From positions 2,848,001 through 2,912,000 of the forward strand of contig OZ241869.1 of NCBI GenBank assembly GCA_965202805.1: a DNA stretch of 64,000 nucleotides. Reading direction: 5' to 3'. Positions 12,337-36,576 of the stretch are shown here, in pieces (position 1 is the first letter of the stretch; every line of letters starts with the position of its first letter). Source of the stretch: Longimicrobiales bacterium. GTDB lineage: Bacteria; Gemmatimonadota; Gemmatimonadetes; Longimicrobiales; Gaopeijiaceae. The notes under the pieces were generated by a model. That model worked only from the letters and a program-made list of their open reading frames with translations. It searched no databases and was not told the origin of the DNA. A program made the position numbers and the translations under genes.

Positions 12337-12409
<73 letters not shown>

Positions 12410-16453: not shown

Positions 16454-16483
16454 CTCTCACTGTTGCTGGAGTCACTTGGAGGT

Positions 16484-18615: not shown

Positions 18616-18624
18616 GCCCGAGGT

Positions 18625-21582
18625 TCAGAACACGAACCGCAGCACGAACGTGACGGTGGTCGGCGCGGGCACGCGGTCGGAGGTGCCGACGCCGTCGCCG
18701 TTCGCGCCGTCGTTCCCGGGGATCTCGACGTCCCACCATGGGATCTCCCGGTACCAGGTGAACGCGTTCGAGAGGGTGACGGTGAGCAGGGGGTCGCGGA
18801 TGCGGTCGGGGAGCGCGAAGCCGACGGGGATGGTGGCGGCGAGGCTCCGAAGCTTGAAGTAGTCGCCGTCGAACCAGTAGTCGTCGGCCCCGGCCGGCGT
18901 GCACCGCTCCCGCCAGAGATCGGGCGTGTCGGCCCTCAGGTCCAGCGAAGCCGACGGGTCGACGTAGTACGGCAGGCAGAGCGGCGAGACGACGCCCCTC
19001 GACACCGCGACGGGATTGACGAACCGGACGTTGCCGCCCCGGTACTCGCCGAGGGCCGCGACCGCGATCCCGCCCGGGATGCGGGCCGAGATCGAGGAAG
19101 CCAGAAATCGGGTCGGAAGCTGCGGACCGAGCGGCTGCCGCGCGTTGCCCTCCGCGTCGGTCAGGTAGCGGTCGGAGCTCCACGGCCCGTTGACGGCGTC
19201 CGGATCCGCGACCCGCCGGCCCCGGCTCAGGGGCGCCGGGTGCCCGACCACGAAGCGGGATTCCCGCTCGTTGAACGTGTCCGCGCCGCCCAGGTCGAGC
19301 ACCTTCGAGTGGTTCGTGCCGATCCCGAGCCCGACATCGACCGCCCAGTCCGCGGTGCTCAGAATCGCGGCGTCCAACTGAAGCTCGGTCCCCCGGTTGC
19401 GAATCCCGCCGATGTTGAGGAGCTCGCGGCGCTGGGGGATCGACTCGGCGTCGACGGTCACCGGCACCAGGGCGTCCGTGGTCGTCTGGACGTAGCGGGT
19501 GAAGGCGATGGTGAGGCGGCCGTCCAGCAAGTCCGCGTCCAGCCCGGCCTCCCACTCGGCGTTCGACTCGGGTTCCAGCACGCCGCCCGGCGCGGCGTTT
19601 GCCGGCGCGGCACCGCCCCAATACCGGACGGCCTGCAGGAACGGGCTCAGCGCGGTGCTCGAGTGCCCCCAGGCGGCGCGCAGCCGCAGCGCGCCCAGCG
19701 CCTCGGGCCAGAACGCCTCGTCGCTCGCCACCCACGCCAGCCCCACGCGCGGGTCGAGATGGAAGGAGGCGTCCCCCCGGGCCTCATGGCGGTCGACGCG
19801 CAGCCCCGTGGTGAGGAAATAGCGGTCCCGTAGCGCGAGCACGTTCTGTGCGAAGACGCCGGCGGTCGAAGCGCTGCCCGTCAGGTCGAGGGTCTCGACG
19901 TCGCCGGCCTCTCCCGTCGCCGGCAGGTCGTCGAACAGGCCCGCCCGGGACCGCGTCGTCCACCCGAGGTCGTCGGTCACGAGCTGGGCGCCGAACGACA
20001 GGGTCGAGCGCGTCTCGCCGCGCGTGAACGCCTTGACGCCGAGGTAGTCCAGCGTCCACAGGCGGCGGTCCCAGTCCCGCGTCGTGGTCGCGCCTTCCGG
20101 ACGAAAGGACCCGGGCAGGTACACGGATCGCAGGTCCTGGCGCGAGAAGTCGTAGCCCAGCGACAGGCGATGGGACGCGAGCGCGCTCCGGCTGAACGTC
20201 GTGCTGAGCCCCCCCGTGAAGCGGTCGATCCACTGGTCGTTGTGGTTGCCGAGCAGCCTCGCGATGTCGCGCGGGTCGGACGAGCCCAGGAGGTTGCGGT
20301 CCTGGCGCATCGTGCTCAGGAGGATGCTCTCCGTGCTCCGGCCCGACGCCGTGTTCGATGTCCGGAAGCTGGTGTAGGCCGCCCGGACGCGCGCTTCCAG
20401 GCTCGGCGTGAGGGCCAGCCCCAGGTTGCTCCGGAACGCGTAGCGCTCGAGCCGGTCGAGCGGGAGGGCGTAGGTGTCGTCCTGGTATTCGGCCGACGCG
20501 AAGTAGTCCACGGTCCGGGAGCCCCCGTCGACCGCGAGCCGGTACTTCCGGTACCACTGGCTCCCCGGCCAGCTGCAGCCCCCGTCGGCCGACCCGTTGG
20601 CGTCCTCCCAGCGGGGGTCGTCCGTGACGCAGTCCCCGGACGCGGCGCCTCCCTCGTAGCCTCCGCCCCACCAGGCGTCGCGCAGGAAGTGCTCGACGTG
20701 CAGGTAGTCCACCCCGTTGACCCCGAACCGCGGGACCCAGCCCGTGCCCTGCGACACCTCGGCGGTCCAGCGCGGAGGACCCCTCACGCCGCGCCTGGTG
20801 AAGATCCGGATGACGCCGTTCGACGATCCGGTCCCGAAGAGGGTGGTCGCCGCCGGCCCCTTGATCACCTCGATGCGCTCGATGTCCCCCACGCTGACCA
20901 GATCCAGCGGGCTGGTCGTGACGTTGGCGCCCCCGGGGAGCCCGACGCCGGGGCGGTCGAAGACCTCCGACGGGAAGGCGCCCTCCATCATGCGCACCCC
21001 GTCGATGTAGACCAGCGGGTGGCTGGACAGGACCATGCTGCCGTTGCCCCGCAGCCGGATCTGCCTGCCCTGGCCCGCCTCCGCGCTGCCGCCCGTGACC
21101 TCCACGCCGACGGCGGCGCCCTGCAGAAAGTCCGACAGGGTCGGCGGGCGGTCCAGCACTTCATCGATCTCGAGCCGGGCCACGGTATTGCCGACCTCGC
21201 GCCCCCGCCGGATCCCCGCCTCGCTCGTGACGACGATCTCGTCCATCGCGACCGGCTCCGGCGTCAGCGCGAAGTCCACGACCACGGCGCCGTCCTCCGG
21301 CACGCTCACCGGCCGCCGGAGCGGGCGGTAGCCGATGAGCTCGACCCGGAGGACATGGTCACCGGACGGCACCGCAAGGAGCATGAACCGTCCGTCGTCG
21401 CCGGAAAGGCCGGTGGCGGCCGAGCCTTCCAGGATCAACTGTGCACCCGGAAGCGCCGCTTGCGACTGGACGTCGCTCACGCTGCCCATGACGGTCCCGG
21501 TCTGGGCGGAAAGGCCCGGGGCCACGCTCGCCGCCAGCAGCAGCGCCGAGGCAGTCGAGGTCAGGGTACGCGGACCCTTCAA
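18625..21582 (-). CDS. SusC/RagA-like TonB-dependent outer-membrane receptor
   Basis: TTG start overlaps the upstream TGA. Signal peptide, carboxypeptidase-regulatory-like N-domain, plug IRLRG..PLVYIDGV..DIERIEVIKGPAATTLFG..NGVI, LEPE..EWEAG, N.G.IRNRG.E, C-terminal Phe. Confidence 0.92.
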   Translation of the reverse strand: MKGPRTLTSTASALLLAASVAPGLSAQTGTVMGSVSDVQSQAALPGAQLILEGSAATGLSGDDGRFMLLAVPSGDHVLRVELIGYRPLRRPVSVPEDGAVVVDFALTPEPVAMDEIVVTSEAGIRRGREVGNTVARLEIDEVLDRPPTLSDFLQGAAVGVEVTGGSAEAGQGRQIRLRGNGSMVLSSHPLVYIDGVRMMEGAFPSEVFDRPGVGLPGGANVTTSPLDLVSVGDIERIEVIKGPAATTLFGTGSSNGVIRIFTRRGVRGPPRWTAEVSQGTGWVPRFGVNGVDYLHVEHFLRDAWWGGGYEGGAASGDCVTDDPRWEDANGSADGGCSWPGSQWYRKYRLAVDGGSRTVDYFASAEYQDDTYALPLDRLERYAFRSNLGLALTPSLEARVRAAYTSFRTSNTASGRSTESILLSTMRQDRNLLGSSDPRDIARLLGNHNDQWIDRFTGGLSTTFSRSALASHRLSLGYDFSRQDLRSVYLPGSFRPEGATTTRDWDRRLWTLDYLGVKAFTRGETRSTLSFGAQLVTDDLGWTTRSRAGLFDDLPATGEAGDVETLDLTGSASTAGVFAQNVLALRDRYFLTTGLRVDRHEARGDASFHLDPRVGLAWVASDEAFWPEALGALRLRAAWGHSSTALSPFLQAVRYWGGAAPANAAPGGVLEPESNAEWEAGLDADLLDGRLTIAFTRYVQTTTDALVPVTVDAESIPQRRELLNIGGIRNRGTELQLDAAILSTADWAVDVGLGIGTNHSKVLDLGGADTFNERESRFVVGHPAPLSRGRRVADPDAVNGPWSSDRYLTDAEGNARQPLGPQLPTRFLASSISARIPGGIAVAALGEYRGGNVRFVNPVAVSRGVVSPLCLPYYVDPSASLDLRADTPDLWRERCTPAGADDYWFDGDYFKLRSLAATIPVGFALPDRIRDPLLTVTLSNAFTWYREIPWWDVEIPGNDGANGDGVGTSDRVPAPTTVTFVLRFVF

Positions 21583-23174
21583 CCGCCGGCCCGCCCGGAA
21601 TTGGCTCGGTCGCCGCGCTGCGTCGGCCAGGGCGAGCCGGCATAGCCACCGTTCGCCGACTCCGTCTCGACGATCCCGTGTACGGTCCCCCCATCCGAAC
21701 GGGAGGAGGCGGCGGCGATGATCGTGCCATCGACACCGATGGCGGGCGATGTGCGGACGCGGACATCCGAGACGACGTCGCCGCCCGGCTGATAGTCCCA
21801 AAGGAGCCTGCCCCGGGCGTCGAGCGCCGTGACGCCGCGGCCCGAGCCGACATAGACGTTGCCGTCCGCCCCCAGGATCGGCGTGGTCCGGTACCCGGAC
21901 GTGCTTGTATGGAAGTGCCAGCGAATCGAGCCGTCGGGATTGATGGCGAACAGGCCCCTGCCCAGAACATAGATCGCGCCGTCCGGACCGATCGAAGGCG
22001 GCGAGTTGACCTGTACACGAGAGCTCTCGTTGCCCTCGATGGGGCGCCTCACCACGACGCTCCATCGCTCGCTTCCGTCGGGGTCAACCGCGTAGAGCCG
22101 TCCGTCGTAGGAGGCGACGTAGATCGTCCCGTCCGCGCCGATCGAAGGCGGCGCCCTGATCAGGTCCCCCGTCTGGAACGTCCACCGCGGCGAGCCGTCG
22201 TGGTTGATCGCATGCAAGGCATGATCGTCTCCGCCGACGTAGATCGTGCCGTCGCGCGCGACCGCGGGCGAGGAAAAGGTGAAGGTTCTGACGGGGGTCT
22301 CGTAGGTCCACCGGATCTCGCCTTGGGGATCCACCGCGTAGACGTGGTGCCCCCGGGCCACGTGGATGGTCCCGTCCAGTCCGAGAGCGGGAGACGACGA
22401 GATTCGGTCGAGGCCGTCCAGTATCCAGCGAATGGATCCGCCGGGATCCACGGCGACGAGGGCGCCGCCGGAGCCGATTGTGGAGCCGAAATACAGCGTC
22501 CCGTCCGCCCCGATGGCGGGCGTCGACCGGGTGGTGAGCCCAGGCAGATCCACGGTCCAGAGAATGCCTCCCTGAGGCGAGAGGGCGTACCAATGACTTC
22601 GTTCGCCAGGGTTGTCATCCCACCCGACGTAGATTGTGCCGTCGGCTCCGATCGCGACGCCGGCCCTGACCGATCCTCCCCTGCTCCCTTCCGGAAAGGA
22701 CCAGGCGAGCGGAAAGGACCAGGCGACGCGCGCCCGCTCCCGCACCGTGACCGTCAGCCTGCCCGTCACCCCCTGACTGGTCGCGGTGATGGTCGCCGTG
22801 CCGTCGCTCAAGCCGGTGACGGACCGAGTGGACCCGCCATTGCTCAGAATGCTGTCCCCGCTCACGGACGCGATCTCGGGCGCGGAGGACGCCCACGCAA
22901 AACGGTCGGGATCAAAGGCCGTGCGGTACAGCGTGGTGCCGTCCGCGGCCAGCGCCTCCGCAAATGGGCGGAACCGGGTGCCGAGGAAACCGATGGTTCG
23001 TTCGGATGGCGTGATCCGGATCGAGGCGACGACCGTGTCGGGGCCGGATGGAGCGACCGTGTCAGGGGCCGTGGGACCGACCGGCGCGGCGCGCTCTCCG
23101 CCGCACCCGCCGACCGACAGCCACAGGCACGCGCTCGCGGCGGGCAGGATCCACGCCCGGCACAGGGGGATCAT
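21579..23174 (-). CDS. Ig-like (Big_2) + PQQ-type beta-propeller lipoprotein, paralog P6
   Basis: Lipobox VGGC, Big_2 motif W.SSAPEIASV..GTATITATS, repeated SPAIG.DGTIYVG..LYA.DPDG..RW blades. Confidence 0.88.
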   Translation of the reverse strand: MIPLCRAWILPAASACLWLSVGGCGGERAAPVGPTAPDTVAPSGPDTVVASIRITPSERTIGFLGTRFRPFAEALAADGTTLYRTAFDPDRFAWASSAPEIASVSGDSILSNGGSTRSVTGLSDGTATITATSQGVTGRLTVTVRERARVAWSFPLAWSFPEGSRGGSVRAGVAIGADGTIYVGWDDNPGERSHWYALSPQGGILWTVDLPGLTTRSTPAIGADGTLYFGSTIGSGGALVAVDPGGSIRWILDGLDRISSSPALGLDGTIHVARGHHVYAVDPQGEIRWTYETPVRTFTFSSPAVARDGTIYVGGDDHALHAINHDGSPRWTFQTGDLIRAPPSIGADGTIYVASYDGRLYAVDPDGSERWSVVVRRPIEGNESSRVQVNSPPSIGPDGAIYVLGRGLFAINPDGSIRWHFHTSTSGYRTTPILGADGNVYVGSGRGVTALDARGRLLWDYQPGGDVVSDVRVRTSPAIGVDGTIIAAASSRSDGGTVHGIVETESANGGYAGSPWPTQRGDRANSGRAGG

Positions 23175-24763
23175 CCGCCCGTCCGCCCCGTATTGGCTCG
23201 ATTGCCGCGCTGCGTCGGCCAGGGCGAGCCGGCATGGCCGCCGTTCGCCGACTCCGTCTCGATGATCCCGTGTATGGTGCCCCCGTCCGTTTCGGAGACG
23301 GACGCCGCGATGATCGTGCCATCGACGCCGATGGCGGGCGATGCAAGGAAGTGGTCATCCCAGGGGACGCTACCCGGCTCGTAATCCCACAGCAGCCTGC
23401 CCTGGGCGTCGAGCGCCGTGACAGCAGGGCCCGAAGCAAGATAGACGCTGCCGTCCGCCCCCAGGATCGGCGTGGTCCTGTACCCGGACGTCCGTGAATG
23501 GAAGTGCCAGCGAATCGAGCCGTCGGGATTGATGGCGAACAGGCCGTCGCCTAGGAGATAGATCGCGCCGTCCAGACCGATCGAAGGCGGCGAGTTGACA
23601 CTTACAGAGGAGCCCCCGAAGCCCTCGGGGGTGCGCCTCACCACGACGCTCCATCGTTCACTCCCATCGGGGTCAACCGCGTAGAGCCGTCCGTCGTAGG
23701 AGGCGACGTAGATCGTGCCGTCCGCCCCGATCGAAGGCGGCGCCCTGATCAGGTCCCCCGTCATGAACGTCCACCGCGGCGAGCCGTCGCGGCTGATCGC
23801 ATGCAAGGCATGATCGTCCCCCCCGACGTAGATCGTGCCGTCGCTCGCGACCGCAGGCGAGGAAAAGGTGAAGGTTCTGACGGGGGTCTCGTAAGTCCAC
23901 CGGATCTCGCCCCGGGGATCGACCGCGTGGACGTGGCGGCCGCCGGCCACGTGGATGGTCCCGCCCGGTCCGAGAGCGGGAGACGACGAGATTCGGCCGA
24001 GGCCGCTCAGTATCCACCGAATGGACCCGCCGGGATCCACGGCGACGAGGCTGCCGGCGGAGTCGATGCGGGAACCGAAATACAGCGTCCCGTCAGCCCC
24101 GATGGCGGGCATCCCCCAGAAGGTGAGCCCGGGCACGTCCACGGTCCACAGAATGCCTCCCTGAGGTGAGAGGGCGTACCAATGGCTTGTTTGCGCGGGG
24201 TAGTCATTCCACCCAACGTAGATCGTGCCGTCCGCTCCGATCGCGACACCGCCCCCGATCAATATTTCCGCGGTCGCTTCCGGAAACGACCATTCGAGCG
24301 GAACGGACCAGGCGAGCCGCGCCCGTTCCCGCACCGTGACCGTCAGCCTGCCCGTCACCCCCTGACTGGTCGCCGTGATCGTCGCCGTGCCGTCGCCCAA
24401 CCCCGTGACGGTGCGAGTGGACCCGCCGTTGCTCAGAATGCTGTCCCCGCTCACGGACGCGATCTCGGGCGCGGAGGACGACCACGCAAAACGGCCGGGA
24501 TCGTGACCCGTGTGGTACAGCGTGGTGCCGTCCGCGGCCAGCGCGTCTGCAAATGGGTAGAACCGGGTGCCGAGGAAGCCGATGGTCCGTTCGGATGGCG
24601 TGATCCGGATCGACGCGACGACCGTGTCCGGGACCGAGGGAGCGACTGTGTCCGGGACCGAGGGAGCGACCGGCGCGGCGCGCTCTCCGCCGCACCCGCC
24701 GAGAACCAGCGACAGGCACGCGCTCGCGGCGGGCAGGACCCGCGCCCGGCACAGCCGGATCAT
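23171..24763 (-). CDS. Ig-like + PQQ-type beta-propeller lipoprotein, paralog P5
   Basis: Same architecture; start MIRLCRARV at 24763 in an ATGA overlap. Confidence 0.88.
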   Translation of the reverse strand: MIRLCRARVLPAASACLSLVLGGCGGERAAPVAPSVPDTVAPSVPDTVVASIRITPSERTIGFLGTRFYPFADALAADGTTLYHTGHDPGRFAWSSSAPEIASVSGDSILSNGGSTRTVTGLGDGTATITATSQGVTGRLTVTVRERARLAWSVPLEWSFPEATAEILIGGGVAIGADGTIYVGWNDYPAQTSHWYALSPQGGILWTVDVPGLTFWGMPAIGADGTLYFGSRIDSAGSLVAVDPGGSIRWILSGLGRISSSPALGPGGTIHVAGGRHVHAVDPRGEIRWTYETPVRTFTFSSPAVASDGTIYVGGDDHALHAISRDGSPRWTFMTGDLIRAPPSIGADGTIYVASYDGRLYAVDPDGSERWSVVVRRTPEGFGGSSVSVNSPPSIGLDGAIYLLGDGLFAINPDGSIRWHFHSRTSGYRTTPILGADGSVYLASGPAVTALDAQGRLLWDYEPGSVPWDDHFLASPAIGVDGTIIAASVSETDGGTIHGIIETESANGGHAGSPWPTQRGNRANTGRTGG

Positions 24764-26355
24764 CGGCCCGCCCGCCCGGTATTCGCGCGATTGCCGCGTT
24801 GCGTCGGCCAGGGCGAGCCGGCGTAACCGCCGTTCGCCGACTCCGTCTCGACGATCCCGTGTATCGCGCCCCCGTGCCGATCGGAGGAGGAGGTCGCGAT
24901 GATCGTGCCATCGACACCGATGGCGGGCGAACCGAGGACATGGACACCCGAGAAGCCGTAGCCACCACCGGGCTGGTAGTCCCACAGGAGCCTGCCCTGG
25001 GAGTCGAGTGCCGTGACGGAGAGGCCCGAACCGATATAGACGTTGCCGTCCGCTCCCAGGATCGGCGTGGTCCACCACGAGGACGCATTCGTATCGAAGT
25101 GCCAGCGAATCGTGCCGTCGGGATTGATGACGAACAGGCCGTCGCCCAGGACATAGATTGCGCCGGCCGGCCCGATCGAAGGCGCCGAGTTGACATCTGC
25201 AGAGCCCTCGAGGCCCTCGGGGAGGCGCATCACCTCGACACTCCATCGCTCGCTCCCGTCGGGGTCAACCGCGTAGAGCCGTCCGTCGTAGGAGGGGACG
25301 TAGATCGTGCCGTCCGTGCCGATCGAAGGCGGCGCCCTGATCAGGTCCCCTGTCTGGAACGTCCACCGCGGCGAGCCGTCGCGGCCGATCGCATGCAAGG
25401 CATGATCGTCCCCGCCGACGTAGATCGTCCCGTCGCTCGCGACCGCGGGCGAGGAAAAGGAGAAGGTTCTGCCGGGGGTCTCGTAGGTCCACCGGATCTC
25501 GCCCCGGGGATCGACTGCGTGGACGTGGTGGCCGCCGGCCACGTAGATGGTCCCGTCCGGTCCGAGCGCCGGAGACGACAGGATTCCGTCAAGGTCGTCC
25601 AGCACCCACCGAATGGAGCCGCCGGGATCCACGGCGACGAGGCTGCCGGTCAAGCCGATTCTGGATCCGAGATACAGCGTCCCGTCCGCCCCGATGGCGG
25701 GCGTTGACCATTTGGTACTGGGGAGATCGACGGTCCAAAGTATGCTACCCTGCGGCGAGAGGGCGGACCAATGGCTTCGTTGCGTAGATGAGTCATTCCA
25801 CCCGACGTAGATCGTGCCGTCGGCTCCGATCGCGACGCCGGCCCAGATCGATCCTGTTCCGGCCCTTTCCGCAAAAGACCATTCGAGCGGAACGGACCAG
25901 GCGAGACGCGCCCGTTCCTGCACCGTGACCGTCAGCCTGCCCGTCACCCCCTGACTGGTCGCCGTGATGGTCGCCGTGCCATCGCTCAACCCTGTGATGG
26001 AAGGAGTGGACCCGCCGTTGCTCAAAGTGCTGTCCTCGCTCACGGCCGCGATCTCGGGCGCGGAGGACGACCACGCAAAACGGCCGGGATCAAAAGCGGT
26101 GCGGTACAGCGTCGTGCCGTCCGCGGCCAGCGCCTCTGCAGATGGGCGGAACCGGGTGCCGAGAAAGCCGATGGTTCGTTCGGATGGCGTGATCCGGATT
26201 GACGCGACGACCGTGTCGGGCGCGGTAGAAACGACCGTGTCAGGGACCGAGGGAGCGACCGGCGCGGCGCGCTCTCCGCCGCACCCTCCGAGAACAACCA
26301 GCCACAGGAACGCGCTCGCGGCGGGCAGGACCCGCGACCGGCACAGTCGGATCAT
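24760..26355 (-). CDS. Ig-like + PQQ-type beta-propeller lipoprotein, paralog P4
   Basis: Same architecture; start MIRLCRSRV at 26355 in an ATGA overlap. Confidence 0.88.
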   Translation of the reverse strand: MIRLCRSRVLPAASAFLWLVVLGGCGGERAAPVAPSVPDTVVSTAPDTVVASIRITPSERTIGFLGTRFRPSAEALAADGTTLYRTAFDPGRFAWSSSAPEIAAVSEDSTLSNGGSTPSITGLSDGTATITATSQGVTGRLTVTVQERARLAWSVPLEWSFAERAGTGSIWAGVAIGADGTIYVGWNDSSTQRSHWSALSPQGSILWTVDLPSTKWSTPAIGADGTLYLGSRIGLTGSLVAVDPGGSIRWVLDDLDGILSSPALGPDGTIYVAGGHHVHAVDPRGEIRWTYETPGRTFSFSSPAVASDGTIYVGGDDHALHAIGRDGSPRWTFQTGDLIRAPPSIGTDGTIYVPSYDGRLYAVDPDGSERWSVEVMRLPEGLEGSADVNSAPSIGPAGAIYVLGDGLFVINPDGTIRWHFDTNASSWWTTPILGADGNVYIGSGLSVTALDSQGRLLWDYQPGGGYGFSGVHVLGSPAIGVDGTIIATSSSDRHGGAIHGIVETESANGGYAGSPWPTQRGNRANTGRAGR

Positions 26356-27953
26356 CCGCCCGCCCGCCCGGTATTGGCTCGGTTGCCGCGCTGCGTTGGC
26401 CAGGGCGAGCCGGCGTAGCCCCCGTTCGTCGACTCCGTCTCGACGATCCCGTGTATGGTGCCCCCGTCCGTGTAGGAGACGGAGGTCGCGATGATCGTGC
26501 CATCGACACCGATGGCGGGCGATGCGAGGACGTAGACTCCCGAGAAGCCGTAGCCACCGGGCTGGTAGTCCCAAAGGTGCCTGCCTTGGGCGTCGAGCGC
26601 CGTGACGGTACCGCCCGAGCCGATGTAGACGTTGCCGTCCGCCCCCAGGATCGGCGTGCTCCTGAACCCGGACGTCCCTGAATGGAAGTGCCAGCGAATC
26701 GAGCCGTCGGGATTGATGGCGAACAGGCCCATGCCGAGGACATAGATCGCGCCGTCCGGACCGATCGAAGGCGGCGAGTTGACCTGTCCAGAGAAGCCCT
26801 CGTAGGTGCGCATCACCACGACGCTCCATCGCTCGCTCCCGTCGGGGTCAACCGCGTAGAGGCGTCCGTCGTAGGAGGCGACGTAGATCGTGCCGTCCGC
26901 ACCGATCGACGGCGCCGCCCTGATCAGATCCCCCGTCTGGAACGTCCACCGCGGCGAGCCGTCGCGGTCGATCGCATGCAAAGCCATATCCTCCCCGCCG
27001 ACGTAGATCGTGCCGTCGCTCGCAACCGCGGGCGAGGAAAAGGTGAAGGTCCTGACGGGGGTTTCGTAGGTCCATTGGATCTCGCCTTGGGGATCAACCG
27101 CGTGGACCTGGCGCCCGCCGGCCACGTAGATGGTCCCGTCCCGTCCGAGAGCGGGAGACGACGAGATTCGGTCGAGGCCGTCCAGCATCCACCGAATGGA
27201 TCCGCCGGGATCCACGGCGACGAGGCTGCCCCGGGAGCCGCTGTCGGAGCCGAAATACAGCGTCCCGTCAGCCCCGATGGCGGGCATCCCCCACTTGGTG
27301 AGCCCGGGTACGTCCACGGTCCAGAGAACGCCTCCCTGAGGCGAGAGCGCGTACCAATGGCTTGTTTGCGCGGGCTTGTCATTCCATCCGACGTAGATCG
27401 TGCCGTCGGCTCCTATCGCGACACCGGCCCCGATCAATATTGGCCCCACCGCGTCCGGAAAAGACCATTCGAGCGGAACCGACCAGGCGAGACGCGCCCG
27501 CTCCCGCACCGTGACCGTCAGCCTGCCCGTCACCCCCTGACTGGTCGCCGTGATGGTCGCCGTGCCGTCGCTCAACCCTGTGACGGTGCGAGTGGACACG
27601 CCGTTGTCCAGGATGCTGTCCCCGCTCACTGATGCGATCTCGGGCGCGGAGGACGACCACACAAAAAGGCCGGGATCGTGACCGGTGTCGTACAGCGTGG
27701 TGCCGTCCCCGGCCAGCGCCGCCGCTGCCGTGCCGAACCGGGTGCCGAGGAAGCCGATGGTTCGTTCGGAGGGCGTGATCCGGATCGACGCGACGACCGT
27801 GTCGGGGGTCGTGGGAGCGACCGTGTCCGGGACCGAGGGACCGACCGGCGCGGCGCGCTCTCCTCCGCACCCGCCAAGAACCAGCGAAAGGAACGCGCTC
27901 GCGGCGGGCAGGACCCGCGCCCGGCACAACCGGATCATCCGCCGCACGGCCAT
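26352..27953 (-). CDS. Ig-like + PQQ-type beta-propeller lipoprotein, paralog P3
   Basis: Same architecture; start MAVRRMIRLC at 27953 (alternative 27938). Confidence 0.88.
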   Translation of the reverse strand: MAVRRMIRLCRARVLPAASAFLSLVLGGCGGERAAPVGPSVPDTVAPTTPDTVVASIRITPSERTIGFLGTRFGTAAAALAGDGTTLYDTGHDPGLFVWSSSAPEIASVSGDSILDNGVSTRTVTGLSDGTATITATSQGVTGRLTVTVRERARLAWSVPLEWSFPDAVGPILIGAGVAIGADGTIYVGWNDKPAQTSHWYALSPQGGVLWTVDVPGLTKWGMPAIGADGTLYFGSDSGSRGSLVAVDPGGSIRWMLDGLDRISSSPALGRDGTIYVAGGRQVHAVDPQGEIQWTYETPVRTFTFSSPAVASDGTIYVGGEDMALHAIDRDGSPRWTFQTGDLIRAAPSIGADGTIYVASYDGRLYAVDPDGSERWSVVVMRTYEGFSGQVNSPPSIGPDGAIYVLGMGLFAINPDGSIRWHFHSGTSGFRSTPILGADGNVYIGSGGTVTALDAQGRHLWDYQPGGYGFSGVYVLASPAIGVDGTIIATSVSYTDGGTIHGIVETESTNGGYAGSPWPTQRGNRANTGRAGG

Positions 27954-28112
27954 CGGGTACCGCAGGTGTGGCGGCTGAGCTTCATTCAGCTTTCTACCTC
28001 CATCGCTGAGGAGCCGGCGAAGGTGGGTCCGGCGGAGACAACTTAGGTAAACGACCCGCCGGACGACGAGAGGTGCGCACAGGACCTGCAGAAGATGATC
28101 GGCCTCCAAACA

Positions 28113-28169
28113 CCCCGGAACCCGAGGGCCGGAGTTGCTGGCAGTGCAACCCGGCCCTCGGGCTCGGGG
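28113..28169 (-). terminator. Long stem-loop, probable terminator
   Basis: CCCGAGGGCCGG(A)GTTGC-7 nt-GCAACCCGGCCCTCGGG, followed by a short TGTTT on the minus strand. Confidence 0.55.
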
Positions 28170-28194
28170 ACCGACGCCTGTCTGGAAAGGCTAG

Positions 28195-29890
28195 CTAGAT
28201 CTCGTCCATTTTATGGTCGTAAGCGCAACCCTGTCAGGCCTTTAGCGCGGGATTTGGGTGGATTTGCGAGGTGCTGGTGACGTGTAAGAGCGGTGCGGGG
28301 CGTTGTTATCGGTGCCCGCCCGCCCATGGGGGCTGGGAGTCCCTCCGACCCGCTCGAGTCGGTCTCGAAGAGGAGCCATCGAGTCGCCCCGGCGCTTAGG
28401 ACGGCTTCAGTCTTAGCCGGCTGCGGGCCAGCACCGCCAGATTGTGGGCAAGGATCGCCGACCAGACGTAGGCCCGGAAGTGATCGAGCCCCCGCCAGTG
28501 GCATCGGCGAAGGCCGAAGCACCGCTTGAGATACGAGATCGCCGCCTCGATGCCCGCGCGGAAGCGCCGCAGCTTATCGTAGACGCCGGGTGACGACGCC
28601 ATGTCCGCCACTCGCAACCCCCTCTTCCTCTCGAACACCATGTCGGTGACGCCAAGCGCCCTGGCCTCGTGCAGGTTGCGCTTGCTGGCGTAGCCGGCGT
28701 CGCAGGCGACTTGTTCCGGCACCGAACCGTAGATCTCCGCATGACGCTCGATCATCGCGAGACACCGGCTGCTGTCGGCCGGATTGCCCCGCTCGACCAC
28801 CGCATCGAGCACGAGTCCGCTCGCGCCCGTGCTGAGATTGACCTTGTGTCCGTACTGAACCTGCCGCCCGCCCTTGACGATGATGTCCGTGTGGGGCTCG
28901 AACAGACTCGCCACCTTCTCCTGCGCGGGGACCTTCTCGCCCCGCAGCACCCTGCGCTCGGTCTGGTCGACCACCCGCCCCAGCAACTCCCCGTATTGCA
29001 ACGCCTTAGACGGCCAGTCCCGCAGCGCCGGGGCCTCGCGCTCCTCGGCCGCCGCCAGCGCACCGTGCAGATACCCGAGCGTCCTTCGCGCCAGCCCCAG
29101 CAACTCCCGGTACGCCGCCACGCGCCGCTTCCCGCGACGCCGCGACGCTCTCAGCGCCCAACGCTTCGCCGCCCGGCGATGATTGTGGAACGGGAAGGCC
29201 TCGGCCCCCAGCTCGTCGCGCGCCCTAACCAGAAGCCGAGTGAGCACCCGCACCCCGTCGCAGAGCAGCTGGCTGTCGGTCGGCTTGCGGATGTGCGTCT
29301 CCGTCACCGTGCTGTCGATGCGCACCGTCCGACCCCTCTCGACCCTGCCGCCGCGGGCCTCCTCCATCAGCACCCGGTTGATGCGCTCCCACACCTCGGC
29401 CCGAACCGCACCGATGCATTTCTGCAGCGCCGACTTCTTCGGCGGCCGCAACGGATTCACCCGGGCGAAGTGCTTCGCAGACGCGGAGTCGAGCAGTGCG
29501 AACTCCAGATCCCGGTATTCCACCTGCCACAGCTGCTTCAGGATCCCGCACCGAAGGATCACCTCGCAGGGCAGCCCCGCCCGGCCTCTCCTCGACCGCC
29601 GCCCGCGGTCGACATCGGCCGCGATCCAGTCCAGGAACTCCGGATGCGCGTCCAGGAGCGCCGAGATCCGCTCCAGAGCGCGGCCCATCTCATGGTTGGG
29701 GTATCCCACGTCGAAGAAACTGCGCTGAGGAGCACGTTTTGCGCGCATCCACGGCCTCCAGGGGCTTGAAAAACCAGTCTTTCACCCCCAAAATAACCCT
29801 CCAACAGCCGCAACGCAGCAAAACTAGCCCTCTCGTAGTTCCGTTACCTCAATAACAACAGCGACTTACGAGATTACGGACGAGAACTAG
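28195..29890. mobile_element. Insertion sequence (IS5/ISNCY-like), about 1.7 kb
   Basis: Imperfect terminal inverted repeats CTAG-ATCTCGTCC...TCGTAAG (left) and CTAG-TTCTCGTCC...TCGTAAG (right, reverse complement). CTAG on both sides is a probable target duplication. Single transposase. Confidence 0.85.
28396..29748 (-). CDS. DDE transposase (IS5/ISNCY-type)
   Basis: RIDSTVTETHIRKPTDSQLL, KVASLFEPHTDIIVKG, CDAGYAS, RAGIEAAISYLKRCFGLRRC. Confidence 0.93.
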   Translation of the reverse strand: MRAKRAPQRSFFDVGYPNHEMGRALERISALLDAHPEFLDWIAADVDRGRRSRRGRAGLPCEVILRCGILKQLWQVEYRDLEFALLDSASAKHFARVNPLRPPKKSALQKCIGAVRAEVWERINRVLMEEARGGRVERGRTVRIDSTVTETHIRKPTDSQLLCDGVRVLTRLLVRARDELGAEAFPFHNHRRAAKRWALRASRRRGKRRVAAYRELLGLARRTLGYLHGALAAAEEREAPALRDWPSKALQYGELLGRVVDQTERRVLRGEKVPAQEKVASLFEPHTDIIVKGGRQVQYGHKVNLSTGASGLVLDAVVERGNPADSSRCLAMIERHAEIYGSVPEQVACDAGYASKRNLHEARALGVTDMVFERKRGLRVADMASSPGVYDKLRRFRAGIEAAISYLKRCFGLRRCHWRGLDHFRAYVWSAILAHNLAVLARSRLRLKPS

Positions 29891-29895
29891 CTAAG

Positions 29896-30360
29896 CTACC
29901 CTTCGCAGTCAGGATTGTACTCATCCGTCCCAAAATAGGCGGTAACGGCAAAGCCATATTTTGTAGGCTGACCGGAGTCTGCGACCGTAAATGTCAAGGT
30001 GCCATCGCCGGAGAAGTAGGCACCAGCGATCTGGTTTGACCCTAACGGACCGTCCCAGGTATCGAGTCCCCCTCCTCCCCAATAAAAGCTGTAGGGCGGT
30101 GTGCCGCCCCACGCGAGGCCATACGCCACGCAGTACTGTCCATTCTGCACTTCTCTCGGGAAGCTGATGAAGGCGGGCAAGAGCTCGTCGGCATTGACGT
30201 CCGTGGCGATCTCCGCGTCCGTGTGAACCGGACCGGCGGGGGCCCACTCCACCTGAGCGCGCGATGGCAGCATCCACGCGCCGATGACCAGCGCCGTCAC
30301 GGCGACGCCGATGACCTTGAGTCCCTTCGCTCCTCTGTTCTGCCCGGTGACCGTTTTCAT
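29896..30360 (-). CDS. Small secreted Ig/PKD-like protein
   Basis: GGAGG SD, signal peptide, GGTPPYSFYW and TLTFTVADS motifs typical of Ig/PKD-like beta sandwiches; lower GC than the flanks. Confidence 0.7.
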   Translation of the reverse strand: MKTVTGQNRGAKGLKVIGVAVTALVIGAWMLPSRAQVEWAPAGPVHTDAEIATDVNADELLPAFISFPREVQNGQYCVAYGLAWGGTPPYSFYWGGGGLDTWDGPLGSNQIAGAYFSGDGTLTFTVADSGQPTKYGFAVTAYFGTDEYNPDCEG

Positions 30361-30470
30361 GGTCTGCCTCCCTGATTCTGGGCCGATTCCTTATGAAGCG
30401 GCCCGTGTTCGGTTGGCCGAACCGGCTCGTCCGATCCGACGATCCGAGTATCGCAACGCATGTCAGCGCT

Positions 30471-30619
30471 CCATAGAGGGAAACCCCCTGATTTCATAGG
30501 GGAAAACCCCTGAATTCATAGAGGGAAATCCCTCACTTCCATAGAGGGAAATCCCTCACTCCATAGAGGGAAAACCCTCAGGCCATAGGGGGAAACCCCT
30601 CAGGCCGGGAAATCCCCCA
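30471..30619. repeat. Tandem array of ~22-23 bp palindromic repeats (6 full + 1 partial)
   Basis: Units CATAGAGGGAAAT/ACCCTCA.. start at 30472, 30495, 30517, 30540, 30562 and 30584; core GAGGG-N4-CCCTC. Confidence 0.92.
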
Positions 30620-30759
30620 CCACCGAAGCGCGAGCGTGACGCTTGCATCGGCCAGTTCCGGACGGGTCGAGCGCTACCGACGGCGTGGACACCATGGGGC
30701 GGCCCGTACGGTGCTGGTACGGGCGGGTGGGCTTGCGCCGCTCCTGTGCGGTGGAGGCG

Positions 30760-30990
30760 CTAGCGTTCGCGCTCGGCCCGCAGGAGCTCTGTCTCCAGGG
30801 CGAAGCGCACGGTGTCGCGCCGCGTGTGCAAGTCCAGCTTGGCCTTCGCGCGCGTGAGATGGCCCTCAACCGTCTTGGGGCTCAGGGACATCTCCCGCCC
30901 ATCTCTCTGGCCGAAAAGCCGCTCGCGTACAGCTCGATCGCCGTACGCTCGCGCGACGAGAGCACCTCGAGGGCTGACCCGTCATTCTGA
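30760..30990 (-). pseudogene. Truncated, frameshifted NarL/LuxR-family HTH regulator
   Basis: LEVLSSRERTAIELYASGFSARE-[1-nt frameshift near 30901]-GREMSLSPKTVEGHLTRAKAKLDLHTRRDTVRFALETELL; no receiver domain upstream. Confidence 0.82.
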
Positions 30991-31043
30991 CTTGGAGGGA
31001 CTGCTAGTACCAGGACTCCGCGGCCGCGGCCAGCGCCGCCCGT

Positions 31044-32648
31044 TCATCCTCCGACCCGCCCGGTATTCGCTCGGTTGCCGCGCTGCGTCGGCCACGGCGA
31101 GCCGGCGTAGCCGCCGTTCGCCGACTCCGTTTCGACGATCCCGTGGATGGTGCCCCCGTCCGTGAAGGAGAATGAGGTCGCGACGATCCTGCCATCGACA
31201 CCGATGGCGGGTGATGCGAGGACGCGACGCCTGGCGGGGGACAAATCCCACGCATCGCCCGGGGTGTAGTCCCACAGGACCCTGCCTTGGGCGTCGAGCG
31301 CCGTGACGGTAACGCCCGCGCTGAGATAGACGTTGCCGTCCGCCCCCAGGATCGGCGTGGTCCGGGTACCGGACGAACCTGCATGGAAGTGCCAGCGAAT
31401 CGAGCCGTCCGGATTGATGACGAACAGGCCCCCGCCCAGGACATAGATTGCGCCGTCCGGCCCGATCGAGGGCGGCGAGGCGACACGTGCATCGGAGCCC
31501 TCGTAGCCCTCGGGAGGGCGCCTCACCACGACGCTCCATCGCTCGCTCCCGTCGGGGTCAACCGCGTAGAGCCGTCCGTCGTAGGAGGGGACGTAGATCG
31601 TGCCGTCCGGGCCGATCGCCGCCGCCGACCTGATCAGGTCCCCCGTCCGGAACGTCCACTGCGGCGAGCCGTCGCGGTTGATCGCGTGCAAGGCATGATC
31701 GCCCCCGCCGATGTAGATCGTGCCGTCGCTCGCGACCGCGGGCGAGGAAAAGGCGAAGGTCGTGACGGGGGTCTCGTAGGTCCACCGGATCTCGCCCCGG
31801 GGATCGACCGCGTGGACGTGGCGCCCGGCGGCCACGTGGATGGTCCCGTCCGGTCCGAGAGCGGGAGACGACGAGATTCGTTCGAGGCCGTCCAGTATCC
31901 AACGAATGGATCCGCCGGGATCGACGGCGACGAGGGCGCCGCCAGAGCCGATTGTGGAGCCGAAGTACAGCGTCCCGTCCGCCCCGGTGCCGGGCATCCC
32001 CCGGATGGTGAACCCGGGCAGGTCCAAGGTCCAGAGAATGCCTCCCTGAGGCGAGAGGGTGTACCAATGGCTTGTTTGCGCGGGGTAGTCATTCCACCCG
32101 ACGTAGATTGTGCCGTCGGCTCCGATCGCGACGCCGGCCGTGATCGATCCTCCCCTGCTCCCTTCCGGGAAGGACCAGTCTAGCGGAACGGTCCAGGCGA
32201 CGCGCGCCTGCTCCCGCACCGTGACCGTCAGCCTGCCCGTAATCCCCTGACTGGTTGCCGTGATGGTCGCCGTGCCATCGCTCAACGCCGTGACGGAACG
32301 GGTCGCCCCGCCGTCGCTCAGAAGGCTGTCCCCACTCACGGATGCGATCTCGGGCGCGGAAGACGACCACGCAAAAAGGCCGGGATCGTTACGCGTGTCG
32401 TACAGCGTGGTGCCGTCCGCGGCCAGCGCGTCCGCTCCCGTGCGGAACCGGGTGCCGAGGAAGCCGATGGTTCGTTCGGATGGCGTTATCCGGATCGACG
32501 CGACGACCGTGTCGGGGGCCGTGGGCGCGACCGTGTCGGAGGCCGATGGGCCGACCGGCGCGGCGCGCTCGCCGCCGCACCCGCCGACAACCAGCGACAG
32601 GAACGCGCTCGCGGCGCGCAGTACCCGCGCCCGGCACAGCCGGATCAT
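31044..32648 (-). CDS. Ig-like + PQQ-type beta-propeller lipoprotein, paralog P2
   Basis: Same architecture; ATG at 32648 in an ATGA overlap with P1. Confidence 0.88.
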   Translation of the reverse strand: MIRLCRARVLRAASAFLSLVVGGCGGERAAPVGPSASDTVAPTAPDTVVASIRITPSERTIGFLGTRFRTGADALAADGTTLYDTRNDPGLFAWSSSAPEIASVSGDSLLSDGGATRSVTALSDGTATITATSQGITGRLTVTVREQARVAWTVPLDWSFPEGSRGGSITAGVAIGADGTIYVGWNDYPAQTSHWYTLSPQGGILWTLDLPGFTIRGMPGTGADGTLYFGSTIGSGGALVAVDPGGSIRWILDGLERISSSPALGPDGTIHVAAGRHVHAVDPRGEIRWTYETPVTTFAFSSPAVASDGTIYIGGGDHALHAINRDGSPQWTFRTGDLIRSAAAIGPDGTIYVPSYDGRLYAVDPDGSERWSVVVRRPPEGYEGSDARVASPPSIGPDGAIYVLGGGLFVINPDGSIRWHFHAGSSGTRTTPILGADGNVYLSAGVTVTALDAQGRVLWDYTPGDAWDLSPARRRVLASPAIGVDGRIVATSFSFTDGGTIHGIVETESANGGYAGSPWPTQRGNRANTGRVGG

Positions 32649-34264
32649 CCGCCCGCCCGCCCGGAATTCGCTCGGTTGCCGCGCTGCGTTGGCCAGGGCG
32701 AGCCGGCGTAGCCGCCGTTCGCCGACTCCGTCTCGACGATCCCGTGGATGGTGCCCCCGTCTGTTTCGGAGAAGGAGGTGGCGATGATCGTGCCATCGAC
32801 ACCAATGGCGGGCGATGCGAGGACGTGAAGCCTGGCGGGCGACGAATCCCTCGCATCGCCCGGGTTGTAGTCCCACAGGAGCCTGCCGTGGGCGTCGAGC
32901 GCCGTAACGGCAACGCCCGAGCCGAGATAGACGTTGCCGTCCGCCCCCAGGATCGGCGTCGTCCTGTACCCGGATGTCCCTGAATGGAAGTGCCAGCGAA
33001 TCGAGCCGTCGGGATTGATGGCGAACAGGCCCCTGCCCAGGACATAGATCGCGCCGTCCGGACCGATCGAAGGCGGCGAGTCGACTGCTGCACGGGAGTC
33101 CTCGAAGCCTGGGGGAGGGCGCATCACCACGACGCTCCATCGCTCGCTCCCGTCGCGATTCACCGCGTAGAGCCGTCCGTCGTGGGAAGGGACGTAGATC
33201 GTGCCGTCCGCGCCGATCGAAGGCGGCGCCCTGATCAGGTTTTCCGTCTTGAACGTCCACCGCGGCGAGCCGTGGCGGTCGATCGCATGCAGGGAATGAT
33301 CGTCCCCGCCGACGTAGATCGTGCCGTCGCTCGCAACGGCCGGCGAGGAAATGAAGAAGTTCCTGACGGGGGTCTCGTAGCTCCACCGGATCTCGCCCTG
33401 GGGATCGACCGCGTAGACGTGGCGCCCGCCGGCCACGTGGATGGTCCCGTCCGGCCCCAGGGCCGGAGACGAATTGATCGCATCGAGGTCGTCGAGTATC
33501 CACTGAATGGACCCGCCGGGATCCACTGCGATGAGACTGCCCCGGGAGCCGCTGTCGGAGCCGAAATACAGCGTCCCGTCGGTCCCGATGGCGGGCATCC
33601 CCCAGCCGGTGAGCCCGGGCACGTCCACGGTCCAGAGAATGCCTCCCTGAGGCGAGAGGGCGTACCAATGGCTTGTTTGCGCGGGGCTGTCATTCCACCC
33701 GACGTAGATCGTGCCGTCGGCTCCGATCGCGACACCGGCCCGTATCGATGCTTGCACCCCACCTTCCGCAAAAGACCATTCGAGCGGAACGGACCAGGCG
33801 AGACGCGCCCGTTCCCGCACCGTGACCGTCAGCCTCCCCGTCACTCCCTGACTGGTCGCCGTGATGGTCGCCGTGCCGTCGCTCATGCCCGTGACGGAAC
33901 GAGTGGACGCGCCGTTCCTCAGGATGCTGTCCCCGCTCACGGACGCGATCTCGGGCGCGGAGGACGACCACGCAAAACGGCCGGGATCAAAAGCGGTGCG
34001 GTACAGCATCGTGCCGTCCGCGGCCAGCGCGTCTGCAGATGGGCGGAACCGGGTGCCGAGGAAGCCGATGGTTCGTTCGGATGGCGTTATCCGGATCGAC
34101 GCCACGACCGTGTCGGGGCCGGATGGAGCGACCGTGTCAGGGGCCGTGGGACCGGCCGGCGCGGCGCGCTCTCCGCCGCACCCGCCGGTCGCGAGCCACA
34201 GGCACGCGCTCGCGGTGGACAGGATCCCCACTCCGCGCGGCAGGATCATCCGCCGCACCGTCAT
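32645..34264 (-). CDS. Ig-like + PQQ-type beta-propeller lipoprotein, paralog P1
   Basis: Same architecture; start MTVRRMILP at 34264 (alternative 34249); lipobox TGGC. Confidence 0.88.
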   Translation of the reverse strand: MTVRRMILPRGVGILSTASACLWLATGGCGGERAAPAGPTAPDTVAPSGPDTVVASIRITPSERTIGFLGTRFRPSADALAADGTMLYRTAFDPGRFAWSSSAPEIASVSGDSILRNGASTRSVTGMSDGTATITATSQGVTGRLTVTVRERARLAWSVPLEWSFAEGGVQASIRAGVAIGADGTIYVGWNDSPAQTSHWYALSPQGGILWTVDVPGLTGWGMPAIGTDGTLYFGSDSGSRGSLIAVDPGGSIQWILDDLDAINSSPALGPDGTIHVAGGRHVYAVDPQGEIRWSYETPVRNFFISSPAVASDGTIYVGGDDHSLHAIDRHGSPRWTFKTENLIRAPPSIGADGTIYVPSHDGRLYAVNRDGSERWSVVVMRPPPGFEDSRAAVDSPPSIGPDGAIYVLGRGLFAINPDGSIRWHFHSGTSGYRTTPILGADGNVYLGSGVAVTALDAHGRLLWDYNPGDARDSSPARLHVLASPAIGVDGTIIATSFSETDGGTIHGIVETESANGGYAGSPWPTQRGNRANSGRAGG

Positions 34265-34287
34265 CGGGTCCCCCAGGTGTGGGACTG

Positions 34288-35055
34288 CTAGTTCCCGGAC
34301 TCCGCGGCCTCGGCCAGCGCCGCCAGCTCGTTGTCCAGGATGTCGCGGAAGAGCTGGGTGGGAAGAGCTCCCTGGACCGGGAATCCGTTGATCAGGAAGC
34401 TCGGCGTTCCGCGCAGGCCGAGCGCGCGGGCGGCCCGTCCCCCGTCGGCGATGCGGTCTCCCGGCCGCTCCTCCACGATGCACGACTCGAACTGTTCGGA
34501 GTTCAGGCCCAGCTCGGCGGCGTAGCCGAGGAAATGAGGCATGGGATCGCCGCTGCCCTTCCACGTCCCCTGGTCCTCGAACAGCCGCACCATCATCCCC
34601 TCGAAGTCGCCCTGCTCTCCCGCGCACTCTCCCGCGAGCGCCGACATGTTGCCGTGGGGAAACATCCCGGTCACGATCGGGATGTATTTCCACAGGACCG
34701 TTCCGGCGTCCATGTACTCCTCCTGGAGCGCGGGAAAGGTCTCTTCGTGGAACTTGCGGCAGAAGCCGCAGCCGAAGTCGCTGAGTTCGGCGATGCGAAG
34801 CGTCGCGTCCGGGCTTCCGAAGTCGAAGCCAAGGCTCGGGAAGTCGATCTCTTCCCCGGGGAGCGTTTCGGGAGGAGTGGTGAAGAGGCTCCGGGTGAGG
34901 GGCTGCGCGGAATCTTCCTCCGCCGGAGGATTTGCGTCGCCTTCTCCACTCGCGCAGCCGGTCGCCAGCGCGAGAACGAGCGGGAGCAGGGCCCGGCATC
35001 GAAACCGTGCGGCGAGCCGATTCCCGGCAGGCGGCGTGGGGTGCTGTAGCTTCAT
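34288..35055 (-). CDS. DsbA-family thioredoxin-fold lipoprotein
   Basis: Lipobox ATGC, GSPDA..I.E.SDFGCGFC, GTPSFLING. Confidence 0.9.
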   Translation of the reverse strand: MKLQHPTPPAGNRLAARFRCRALLPLVLALATGCASGEGDANPPAEEDSAQPLTRSLFTTPPETLPGEEIDFPSLGFDFGSPDATLRIAELSDFGCGFCRKFHEETFPALQEEYMDAGTVLWKYIPIVTGMFPHGNMSALAGECAGEQGDFEGMMVRLFEDQGTWKGSGDPMPHFLGYAAELGLNSEQFESCIVEERPGDRIADGGRAARALGLRGTPSFLINGFPVQGALPTQLFRDILDNELAALAEAAESGN

Positions 35056-35101
35056 CGTCAGGTACCGATTCGTCCGAAGTGGGTGTGGAAAGGTAACGCC
35101 G

Positions 35102-35500: not shown

Positions 35501-35571
35501 CGATCCTGGTCCTCCGGCTGCCCTTGACCCGGTTCGCGGCAGGCGGACAGAATAGCTCCGCCCCGATCGAC

Positions 35572-36518: not shown

Positions 36519-36576
36519 CCGGCCGGTCTCGTCCCGCAGCGGGGCGAACTCGTGCACGGACCTGCGATGGATGCCC

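Follow-up and report, generated by a model that had tools for sequence, protein, structure and literature searches.

We examined a window of 64,000 nucleotides (bases 2,848,001-2,912,000) in the genome of a Longimicrobiales bacterium, which is a single closed contig of 4.02 Mb with ~68% G+C. Six intact paralogous genes on the minus strand, at 21579-34264 of the window, encode predicted lipoproteins of ~530 amino acids with an immunoglobulin (Ig) domain and an eight-bladed propeller, and a gene for a TonB-dependent transporter (TBDT) follows directly. We lean towards the reading that these paralogs are tandemly amplified binding lipoproteins that would act as partners of the transporter and that have been diversified by ordinary recombination. 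An earlier reading of the window, made from its letters (hereafter the sequence-only reading), had proposed an antibody-like repertoire of propeller lipoproteins; it had missed the coupling to the TBDT gene, three further copies elsewhere in the genome, and a polymorphic insertion sequence (IS) within the array.

Anatomy of the lipoproteins and coupling to a transporter gene

The six copies stand in the order F, E, a 3.1 kb insert, D, C, B, A (P1 to P6 of the sequence-only reading). Copy F (32645..34264; 539 amino acids), the first gene of the upstream block, starts with the ATG at 34264 (MTVRR...), and the starts of the internal copies line up with a further ATG within the gene, at 34249. It is identical to collection protein P0008 and matches the Pfam families PQQ_2 (8e-29) and Big_2 (1.1e-07). 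Copy E (31044..32648; 534 amino acids) completes this block. The downstream block begins with copy D (26352..27953; 533 amino acids; ATG at 27953), which has the same length and sequence class as cluster member P0137, and continues with copies C (24760..26355; 531 amino acids), B (23171..24763; 530 amino acids) and A (21579..23174; 531 amino acids). Within the blocks F-E and D-C-B-A, the start codon of each gene overlaps the stop codon of the preceding one by 4 nt (ATGA), and the TTG start of the TBDT gene (18625..21582, minus strand; 985 amino acids) overlaps the stop codon of copy A by 4 nt in turn (TTGA). The six intact paralogs described in the sequence-only reading are real, in that each is a complete open reading frame; compared in pairs, the proteins are 77.5-86.3% and the genes 84.4-89.0% identical. 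Their array is not contiguous: 3105 bp, containing a small open reading frame (ORF X) and the IS element, lie between E and D. A second locus ~440 kb away (G000:C1:3313103-3320401) has three further full-length copies (G, H and I), every one of them preceded by a leader of its own. Copies D and G are sisters in the tree. All nine genomic copies are full-length and intact, with start codon, lipobox and tail.

Each protein is composed of a signal peptide with a lipobox (L-x-G-G-C, Cys24), a linker rich in Pro, Thr and Asp, a Big_2 Ig domain, a PQQ_2 propeller and a tail of 28 residues. The lipobox cysteine does not vary among the six copies and is conserved to at least 90% across 105 homologs, and by this signature the copies are predicted to be lipoproteins. 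The PQQ_2 family (PF13360) was matched at 101.4 and 92.8 bits (cut-off 27.6). An AlphaFold2 model of copy A (pLDDT 84.4, pTM 0.82) placed the Ig domain at residues 51-144 and an eight-bladed propeller at residues 148-503, leaving the tail without confident placement, and eight 'xDGT-IYV' repeats correspond to the eight four-stranded blades. The best structural match was the eight-bladed Cake8 (Z 43.9, root-mean-square deviation 1.4 Å, 316/320 residues); YxaL (Z 37.5) and BamB (Z ~34; Foldseek E ~1e-15) were also among the matches. The tail (residues 504-531; SPWPTQRGNRANTGR; window 21579-21665 in copy A), which includes the motif WPTxRG, has 7 invariant residues in 105 homologs down to 53% identity. 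Its ratio of nonsynonymous (dN) to synonymous (dS) change is 0.15 with normal dS, indicating strong purifying selection, and we consider it a candidate docking motif. In a complex prediction that paired TBDT residues 140-985 with the tail fragment only (residues 496-531), the scores were 0.01 and 0.00 against a mark of 0.32, which speaks neither for nor against an interface. The mature lipoproteins contain no cysteine beyond that of the lipobox, and the TBDT has four invariant cysteines (C318, C336, C869 and C894; 66 homologs).

The copies are not BamB: the NCBIfam equivalog for that protein, TIGR03300, scored 54.4 bits against a cut-off of 285.2, and NF008351 scored 33.3 against 423. The lid proteins BtuG and XusB are seven-bladed and belong to the BtuG or DUF4374 family, whereas the propellers here are eight-bladed and PQQ-type. 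Neither BtuG nor XusB was found among 35 PDB sequence matches, 50 structural rows or the Foldseek rows listed, an absence that does not exclude similarity.

The TBDT contains the Pfam domains PF13715 (CarboxypepD_reg_2, N-terminal), PF07715 (Plug) and PF00593 (TonB_dep_Rec_b-barrel). Against TIGR04056 it scored 231.6 bits over its full length (cut-off 368.25), and against the SusC/RagA signature TIGR04057 it scored 31.1 bits (cut-off 46.2); by these matches it appears to be SusC-like without being a certified SusC/RagA member. One or more propeller genes lie immediately upstream of the TBDT gene at all six TBDT ortholog loci examined, the window included. The syntenic locus of the relative G016 has one propeller gene and a TBDT of 89% identity, with genes for an AraC protein and an S51 peptidase on one side and for a DsbA-like protein and a hydrolase on the other. 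In G002, four copies, one of which is broken by a split into two frames (L020, C1 6066-7564), precede a TBDT of 92% identity. Among more distant Gemmatimonadota, two copies accompany a TBDT of 87% identity (L025), two a TBDT of 70% (L029) and one a TBDT of 65% (L030), and at a further locus (L028) three tandem copies extend up to the contig end. TBDT orthologs of at least 89% identity occur only in G002 and G016 among 30 relatives, where the next best matches are paralogs of 45% identity, and G002 and G016 are also the two genomes of these 30 with adjacent propellers. The propeller family itself was detected (E<=1e-50) in 4/18 other genomes of the genus and in 0/12 genomes from two other families of the order. 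Between species, the TBDT is 89-92% identical, compared to 79-83% for the propeller copies.

By gene order and the start/stop overlaps, the array is translationally coupled to the TBDT gene, and the pairing has been kept in distant Gemmatimonadota. Even where no intact TBDT gene adjoins the propeller genes, traces of one can remain in support of the pairing: a remnant of 24 amino acids in G001 and a stub of 206 residues at the second locus of this genome. Copy number differs widely, from one in a syntenic relative and four in another to six plus three in this genome. On balance, the ancestral unit probably consisted of a TBDT gene preceded by a single propeller lipoprotein gene, and it is the lipoprotein gene that has since multiplied repeatedly.

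Variation and recombination among the copies

To describe where the copies differ, residues were assigned to classes from the DSSP output of the model and the eight repeats; strand borders were set by hand after the alignment had been seen, and the face was given by blade topology rather than by 3D coordinates. Established propeller topology assigns the D-A and B-C connections of a four-stranded antiparallel blade to one face and its A-B and C-D turns to the opposite one. The six copies vary in 504/1605 nucleotide columns, with an overall dN of 0.120 and dS of 0.236 (ratio 0.51). Variation is densest in the D-A and B-C loops, where 80 of 114 columns vary (dN 0.328, dS 0.311, ratio 1.06), compared to 53 of 188 columns in the strands (ratio 0.27), 17 of 59 in the A-B and C-D turns (0.39), 29 of 97 in the Ig domain (0.41) and 6 of 28 in the tail (0.15). 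Moreover, 8 of the 9 real gap columns among the six copies are in D-A loops, the ninth being a one-residue indel in the signal peptide, which is longer by that residue in copy C; this count leaves aside 2 columns that stem from the nine-copy alignment and are gaps in all six. All nine copies gave the same picture. As proposed in the sequence-only reading, whose listed loop alleles were all present in the copies named, the variation thus falls on one face, a placement supported by blade topology. By the same topology this face is opposite the side where the Ig domain enters and the tail leaves. The scaffold, called near-identical in that reading, is less uniform than this term implies, because more than a quarter of the strand and Ig columns vary, and the contrast between loops and scaffold amounts to ~4-5 fold in dN rather than to constant against hypervariable parts. 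The dN/dS comparison that it had suggested does set the loops apart from all other classes (0.15-0.41), but does not place them clearly above 1. For five close pairs, the loop dN/dS was 0.62 (F vs G002_c), 0.81 (D vs G), 1.11 (B vs G002_a), 2.13 (B vs G002_d) and 2.59 (G002_a vs G002_d), values that give no robust sign of positive selection in the loops.

No single tree fits the six copies. Of 25 possible splits, 24 occur among the 112 biallelic informative sites, in runs along the gene. The pairwise homoplasy index (PHI), a test suggested in the sequence-only reading, was 0.389 compared to 0.509 ± 0.012 in permuted data (z=-10, 0/5000); the neighbour similarity score was 0.677 compared to 0.495 (0/5000); and PHI with one site per codon gave z=-4.9 (0/5000). 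Approximately unbiased (AU) tests were performed on four equal quarters of the alignment, chosen beforehand. Quarter 1 rejected the whole-gene tree (p=0.0025) and the trees of the other quarters (p<1e-5), quarter 2 rejected all others (p=0.016 down to 1e-16), and for quarter 4 both the quarter 1 tree (p=0.003) and the quarter 2 tree (p=0.0004) were rejected; quarter 3 was uninformative. These results bear out the earlier claim that no single duplication tree explains the loop combinations and, together with the strain blocks described below, that recombination between copies has shuffled them, and they place the array among multigene families with gene conversion between paralogs. No two of the six copies share an identical run longer than 76 nt, and the exchange tracts within this genome are short and old. 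Of the 17 inner branches in a 20-row protein tree, 8 were left open, as expected under recombination, and this tree was not used to order events.

For every paralog, other assemblies contain orthologs at 95-100% identity, and some recur at 99-100% in independent assemblies, which implies that the paralog lineages are older than the strains and that nothing here is hypermutating. Block swaps between paralogs nevertheless occur at the strain level. A block that is otherwise confined to G is present in A-orthologs from three assemblies, and C-type blocks are present in F-orthologs from three assemblies as well as in one E-ortholog. In one D-ortholog, a block of ~200 residues is of the F type, and swaps between strains also involve the N-terminal leader forms. 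Among 369 unique strain substitutions, 273 introduce the residue that another paralog has at that column, compared to ~36 expected under a crude uniform null. Contig joints at 23150->27930, 30987->34281 and 34344->24768, with sides of 21-64 nt and 93% likeness, are hints of arrays with fewer copies.

The sequence-only reading had stated that neither a recombinase nor a reverse transcriptase is present. The latter observation extends to the whole 4.02 Mb genome, where RVT_1 had 0 matches (the positive control matched in 3/14 genomes); the former does not stand, since a DDE transposase gene lies inside the array. Because no reverse transcriptase was found in the genome, ordinary homologous recombination, which that reading had already favoured, is the likely engine of the exchanges.

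Insert, leader and surroundings of the array

The IS element between E and D (28199..29886; 1688 bp) has short terminal inverted repeats (TCTCGTCC-type) and CTAG on both flanks, its ends having been read directly. It carries an ISNCY-family DDE transposase gene (28396-29748, minus strand; NCBIfam NF033593, 448 bits vs cut-off 325; Pfam DDE_Tnp_1) and is present in a single copy in the genome. The site is uninterrupted (joint 28198->29887) in contigs of two other runs, X1 and X17, which marks the insertion as polymorphic and recent. On the minus strand, a sigma-70-like site (CTGACA-18-TAAAAT, 10/12) at 28237-28208 is directed out of the IS end towards copy D. The other part of the insert, ORF X (29896..30360, minus strand), encodes 154 amino acids with an N-terminal hydrophobic segment and matched no Pfam or NCBIfam family. 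Its paralog at the second locus (61% identity) is flanked by copies G and H, so that ORF X belongs to the duplicated unit.

Upstream of copy D is a conserved 5' leader (27954..28182, minus strand) with a GGAGG-like site before the ATG and a hairpin with 19-nt arms at 28114-28169. Sequence related to this leader is found ahead of G, H and I (a blastn match joins 28054-28182 to the region upstream of H) and occupies the last ~30 nt before F (34265-34287), such that a non-coding leader is kept ahead of every first-in-block copy. The leader matched no Rfam family. Rfam scans of the window and the vicinity of the array returned only a tRNA at 12337-12409 and a sub-threshold LOOT match, and no riboswitch was found in the window at gathering score or in 27800-36600 at E<=1. 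Hence the cobalamin riboswitch that characterizes BtuG was absent from these scans, also near the array. A promoter and terminator scan of 18000-35600 was near chance (3 promoters vs 1.1 expected; 8 terminators vs 6.3).

A DsbA/thioredoxin-like gene (34288..35055, minus strand; Pfam Thioredoxin_4, 1.5e-18) stops 23 nt short of F on the same strand, and G016 has it in synteny. Further genes nearby (13106-17356, minus strand; 36571-37128, plus strand) encode a large AAA_16/MalT-TPR (STAND-like) regulator, an AraC-type helix-turn-helix protein and the cobalamin adenosyltransferase.

Interpretation and comparison with known systems

From the coupling to a conserved TBDT, the variable face directed away from the anchor, the conservation of the remaining parts, and the recombination between copies, we infer that the copies are alternative ligand-capture proteins. 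In this interpretation, the lipoproteins would be surface-exposed in the outer membrane and would be made as one transcription and translation unit with the SusC-like TBDT. The conserved parts are the Ig domain, the strands, the A-B and C-D turns and the tail; the copies differ in the D-A and B-C loops, on the face opposite the Ig stalk and tail. Contact with the constant partner would be made through the constant parts and contact with different ligands through the variable face, such that each copy could hand its own substrates to one conserved transporter. Short-tract homologous recombination (gene conversion or unequal crossing-over) between copies of ~87% identity has scrambled the loops and still moves blocks between strains, where it probably also changes copy number, with the resulting diversity being presumably adaptive. 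In this proposed role, the proteins would resemble accessory lipoproteins of the TbpB, surface glycan-binding protein (SGBP) or XusB type.

Several observations weigh against this interpretation. The partnership with the TBDT is deduced from gene order. Copies G, H and I adjoin only the truncated TBDT paralog (206 residues, 88% identity) in which the second locus ends, and the single copies of G001, where a TBDT remnant of 24 amino acids follows, and of G011 have no transporter beside them; the lipoprotein can therefore persist without an adjacent transporter. A loop dN/dS of ~1 fits unconstrained loops as well as a mix of selected and constrained sites, and among the close pairs only G002_a vs G002_d stood out in a one-sided Fisher test, with a nominal p=0.026 (uncorrected) that is not robust. 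When PHI was confined to synonymous sites in amino-acid-invariant codons, the result was not significant (477/5000), from 25 sites, which are too few to decide. A GENECONV-like longest-run test of the nine copies, of the kind suggested in the sequence-only reading, did give p<0.05 in 9/36 pairs, but revealed no long recent tract, and its minimum of p=0.001, in 1/36 pairs, is marginal after correction. The strain comparisons use proteins from other metagenome assemblies, in which chimeric assembly of paralogs cannot be fully excluded. The term antibody-like repertoire, as used in the sequence-only reading, implies active diversification and overreaches, given lineages stable at 95-100% identity, old tracts of at most 76 nt and a single pair at p=0.001.

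The most serious competitor, to which we give a real but clearly smaller chance, is plain birth-and-death of tandem duplicates, in which the copies are redundant or serve dosage, the loops drift without constraint, recombination is a by-product of ~87% identical DNA, and no repertoire is maintained. Loop dN/dS not clearly above 1, ratios of 0.62-1.18 in ortholog pairs with a single nominal excess, the 14/18 other genomes of the genus without the family at E<=1e-50, the split copy in G002 and the polymorphic IS within the array all agree with such turnover. It accounts poorly for nine copies that all retain lipobox and tail, for loop indels that stay in frame, for paralogs kept at 95-100% identity across assemblies, for amplification in several lineages (three copies in L028, two in L029 and four in G002), and for purifying selection on the rest of the protein (ratio ~0.3). 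Alternatively, the array could supply a variable surface coat for dealing with the sponge host or phages, independently of transport, in which changes on the exposed face would alter what is presented to host, predators or phages. We regard this as unlikely, although the stretch was recovered mostly in runs labelled sponge metagenome (13 among the 20 rows listed, 7 of them with a third or more of the words), four runs, belonging to as many studies, have contigs that cover every one of the 30 bins of 21000-35000, the variable face lies, by topology, opposite the anchor side, and the lipoprotein gene can remain where no TBDT gene adjoins it. PQQ-repeat and Big domains, in addition, count among the 'eukaryotic-like' proteins of sponge symbionts in the available parts of PMC9944714 and PMC6374434. 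A coat leaves the conserved translational coupling to the TBDT unexplained; there is no phase-variation device, all copies having their own starts; and the gene pair also occurs in relatives whose records are titled as soil and sediment genomes, such that it is not sponge-specific.

Two further explanations appear much weaker. BamB is itself an eight-bladed PQQ-type propeller lipoprotein, is among the structural matches, and lends its name to relatives in one source, and the copies could accordingly be periplasm-facing accessory lipoproteins that aid folding or stability of the neighbouring barrel. We consider this very improbable: the equivalog score (54 bits vs 285) is far too low, designed propellers and YxaL match better than BamB, and an extra Ig stalk and multiple fast-evolving copies ill suit a housekeeping chaperone. 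Least credible is that the pattern arose by chimeric assembly, a possibility that the sequence-only reading had itself raised, or by programmed diversification through a diversity-generating retroelement (DGR) or cassettes. Such repeats can mislead assemblers, and contigs from public runs are fragmented inside the array. An assembly artefact is nevertheless unlikely because the genome is closed, the mosaics recur in independent assemblies with paralogs of 99-100% identity, and pieces of 220-470 nt from other studies show 0 differences from the window while being longer than the 76-nt runs that any two copies share. The array is likewise not a member of known DGR or cassette systems: the genome has no reverse transcriptase, blastn of the insert matched the second locus only, and no truncated silent cassettes were found, all nine copies being full-length.

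A bolder version of the ligand-capture interpretation, which we hold to be doubtful, is that one TBDT in a sponge symbiont is served by six operon-encoded and three reserve propellers that recombine, with their distal binding face reshuffled by gene conversion on population time scales into a combinatorial ligand-capture repertoire. If true, this would be the first lipoprotein-assisted TonB-dependent uptake system beyond the Bacteroidota, and also the first in which one barrel has many alternative binders.

In the literature searched, we found no paper on this propeller-lipoprotein family. The nearest functional parallels are BtuG and XusB, propeller lipoproteins of Bacteroides that serve TBDTs, in which loop differences go with ligand specificity and XusB homologues serve different siderophores, as stated in the available parts of PMC10404256 and PMC13142918. 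As in BtuB-BtuG and XusA-XusB, the lipoprotein is encoded beside a TBDT (PMC10404256, PMC13142918, in the same parts), and, like XusA, the TBDT described here carries an N-terminal carboxypeptidase-like domain (PMC13142918, likewise). By contrast, BtuG and XusB have seven blades and belong to other families, whereas these propellers have eight blades of the PQQ/BamB type and an added Big_2 stalk, are encoded upstream of the transporter in six plus three copies, and come from Gemmatimonadota. A variable face opposite the anchor would also fit an accessory binder better than a lid that meets the barrel. The same fold class, an eight-bladed PQQ-type propeller, is found in BamB, which is also a lipoprotein, and in YxaL; the present proteins are far below the BamB cut-off and differ in their Ig domain, conserved tail, multiple copies and TBDT coupling.

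In gene order, the array recalls tbpB-tbpA, lbpB-lbpA and hpuA-hpuB of Neisseria and relatives, where a lipoprotein gene lies directly upstream of a TBDT gene in one operon. Those bipartite receptors also combine a variable, recombining lipoprotein with a conserved transporter, as seen here in the greater identity of the TBDT than of the propellers between species. However, their lipoproteins have a different fold, are encoded once per operon and vary under host immunity in pathogens, whereas the present array is multi-copy and environmental or symbiotic. Helicobacter bab and other outer-membrane paralogs likewise swap short tracts between full-length, expressed copies by homologous recombination, giving mosaic genes and incongruent trees, but include neither propeller lipoproteins nor transporter coupling, and the exchanges here are mostly old and short. 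Like pilE/pilS, vlsE, tprK and DGRs, the array has a constant scaffold with variable patches whose variation comes from other copies; unlike them, it has no single expression site, no silent truncated cassettes, no reverse transcriptase, and stable orthologs.

Six or nine copies that vary on one face would provide a natural experiment on how binding specificity is distributed among paralogs and reshuffled by ordinary recombination without a dedicated diversifier, and would give a concrete, testable role to the 'PQQ' and 'Big' domains that sponge-symbiont papers list as tallies. If the proteins do work together, the Gemmatimonadota pair of propeller and TBDT would widen the picture of lipoprotein-assisted uptake, which has been worked out structurally in Bacteroidota; according to the available parts of PMC10404256, lipoprotein-capped TBDTs seem exclusive to Bacteroidetes. 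Two known kinds of system are combined in this array, namely a propeller lipoprotein that accompanies a TBDT and a multigene family with gene conversion among its members, and the more interesting point is the conserved pairing with a TBDT outside the Bacteroidota together with the repeated amplification of the lipoprotein partner.

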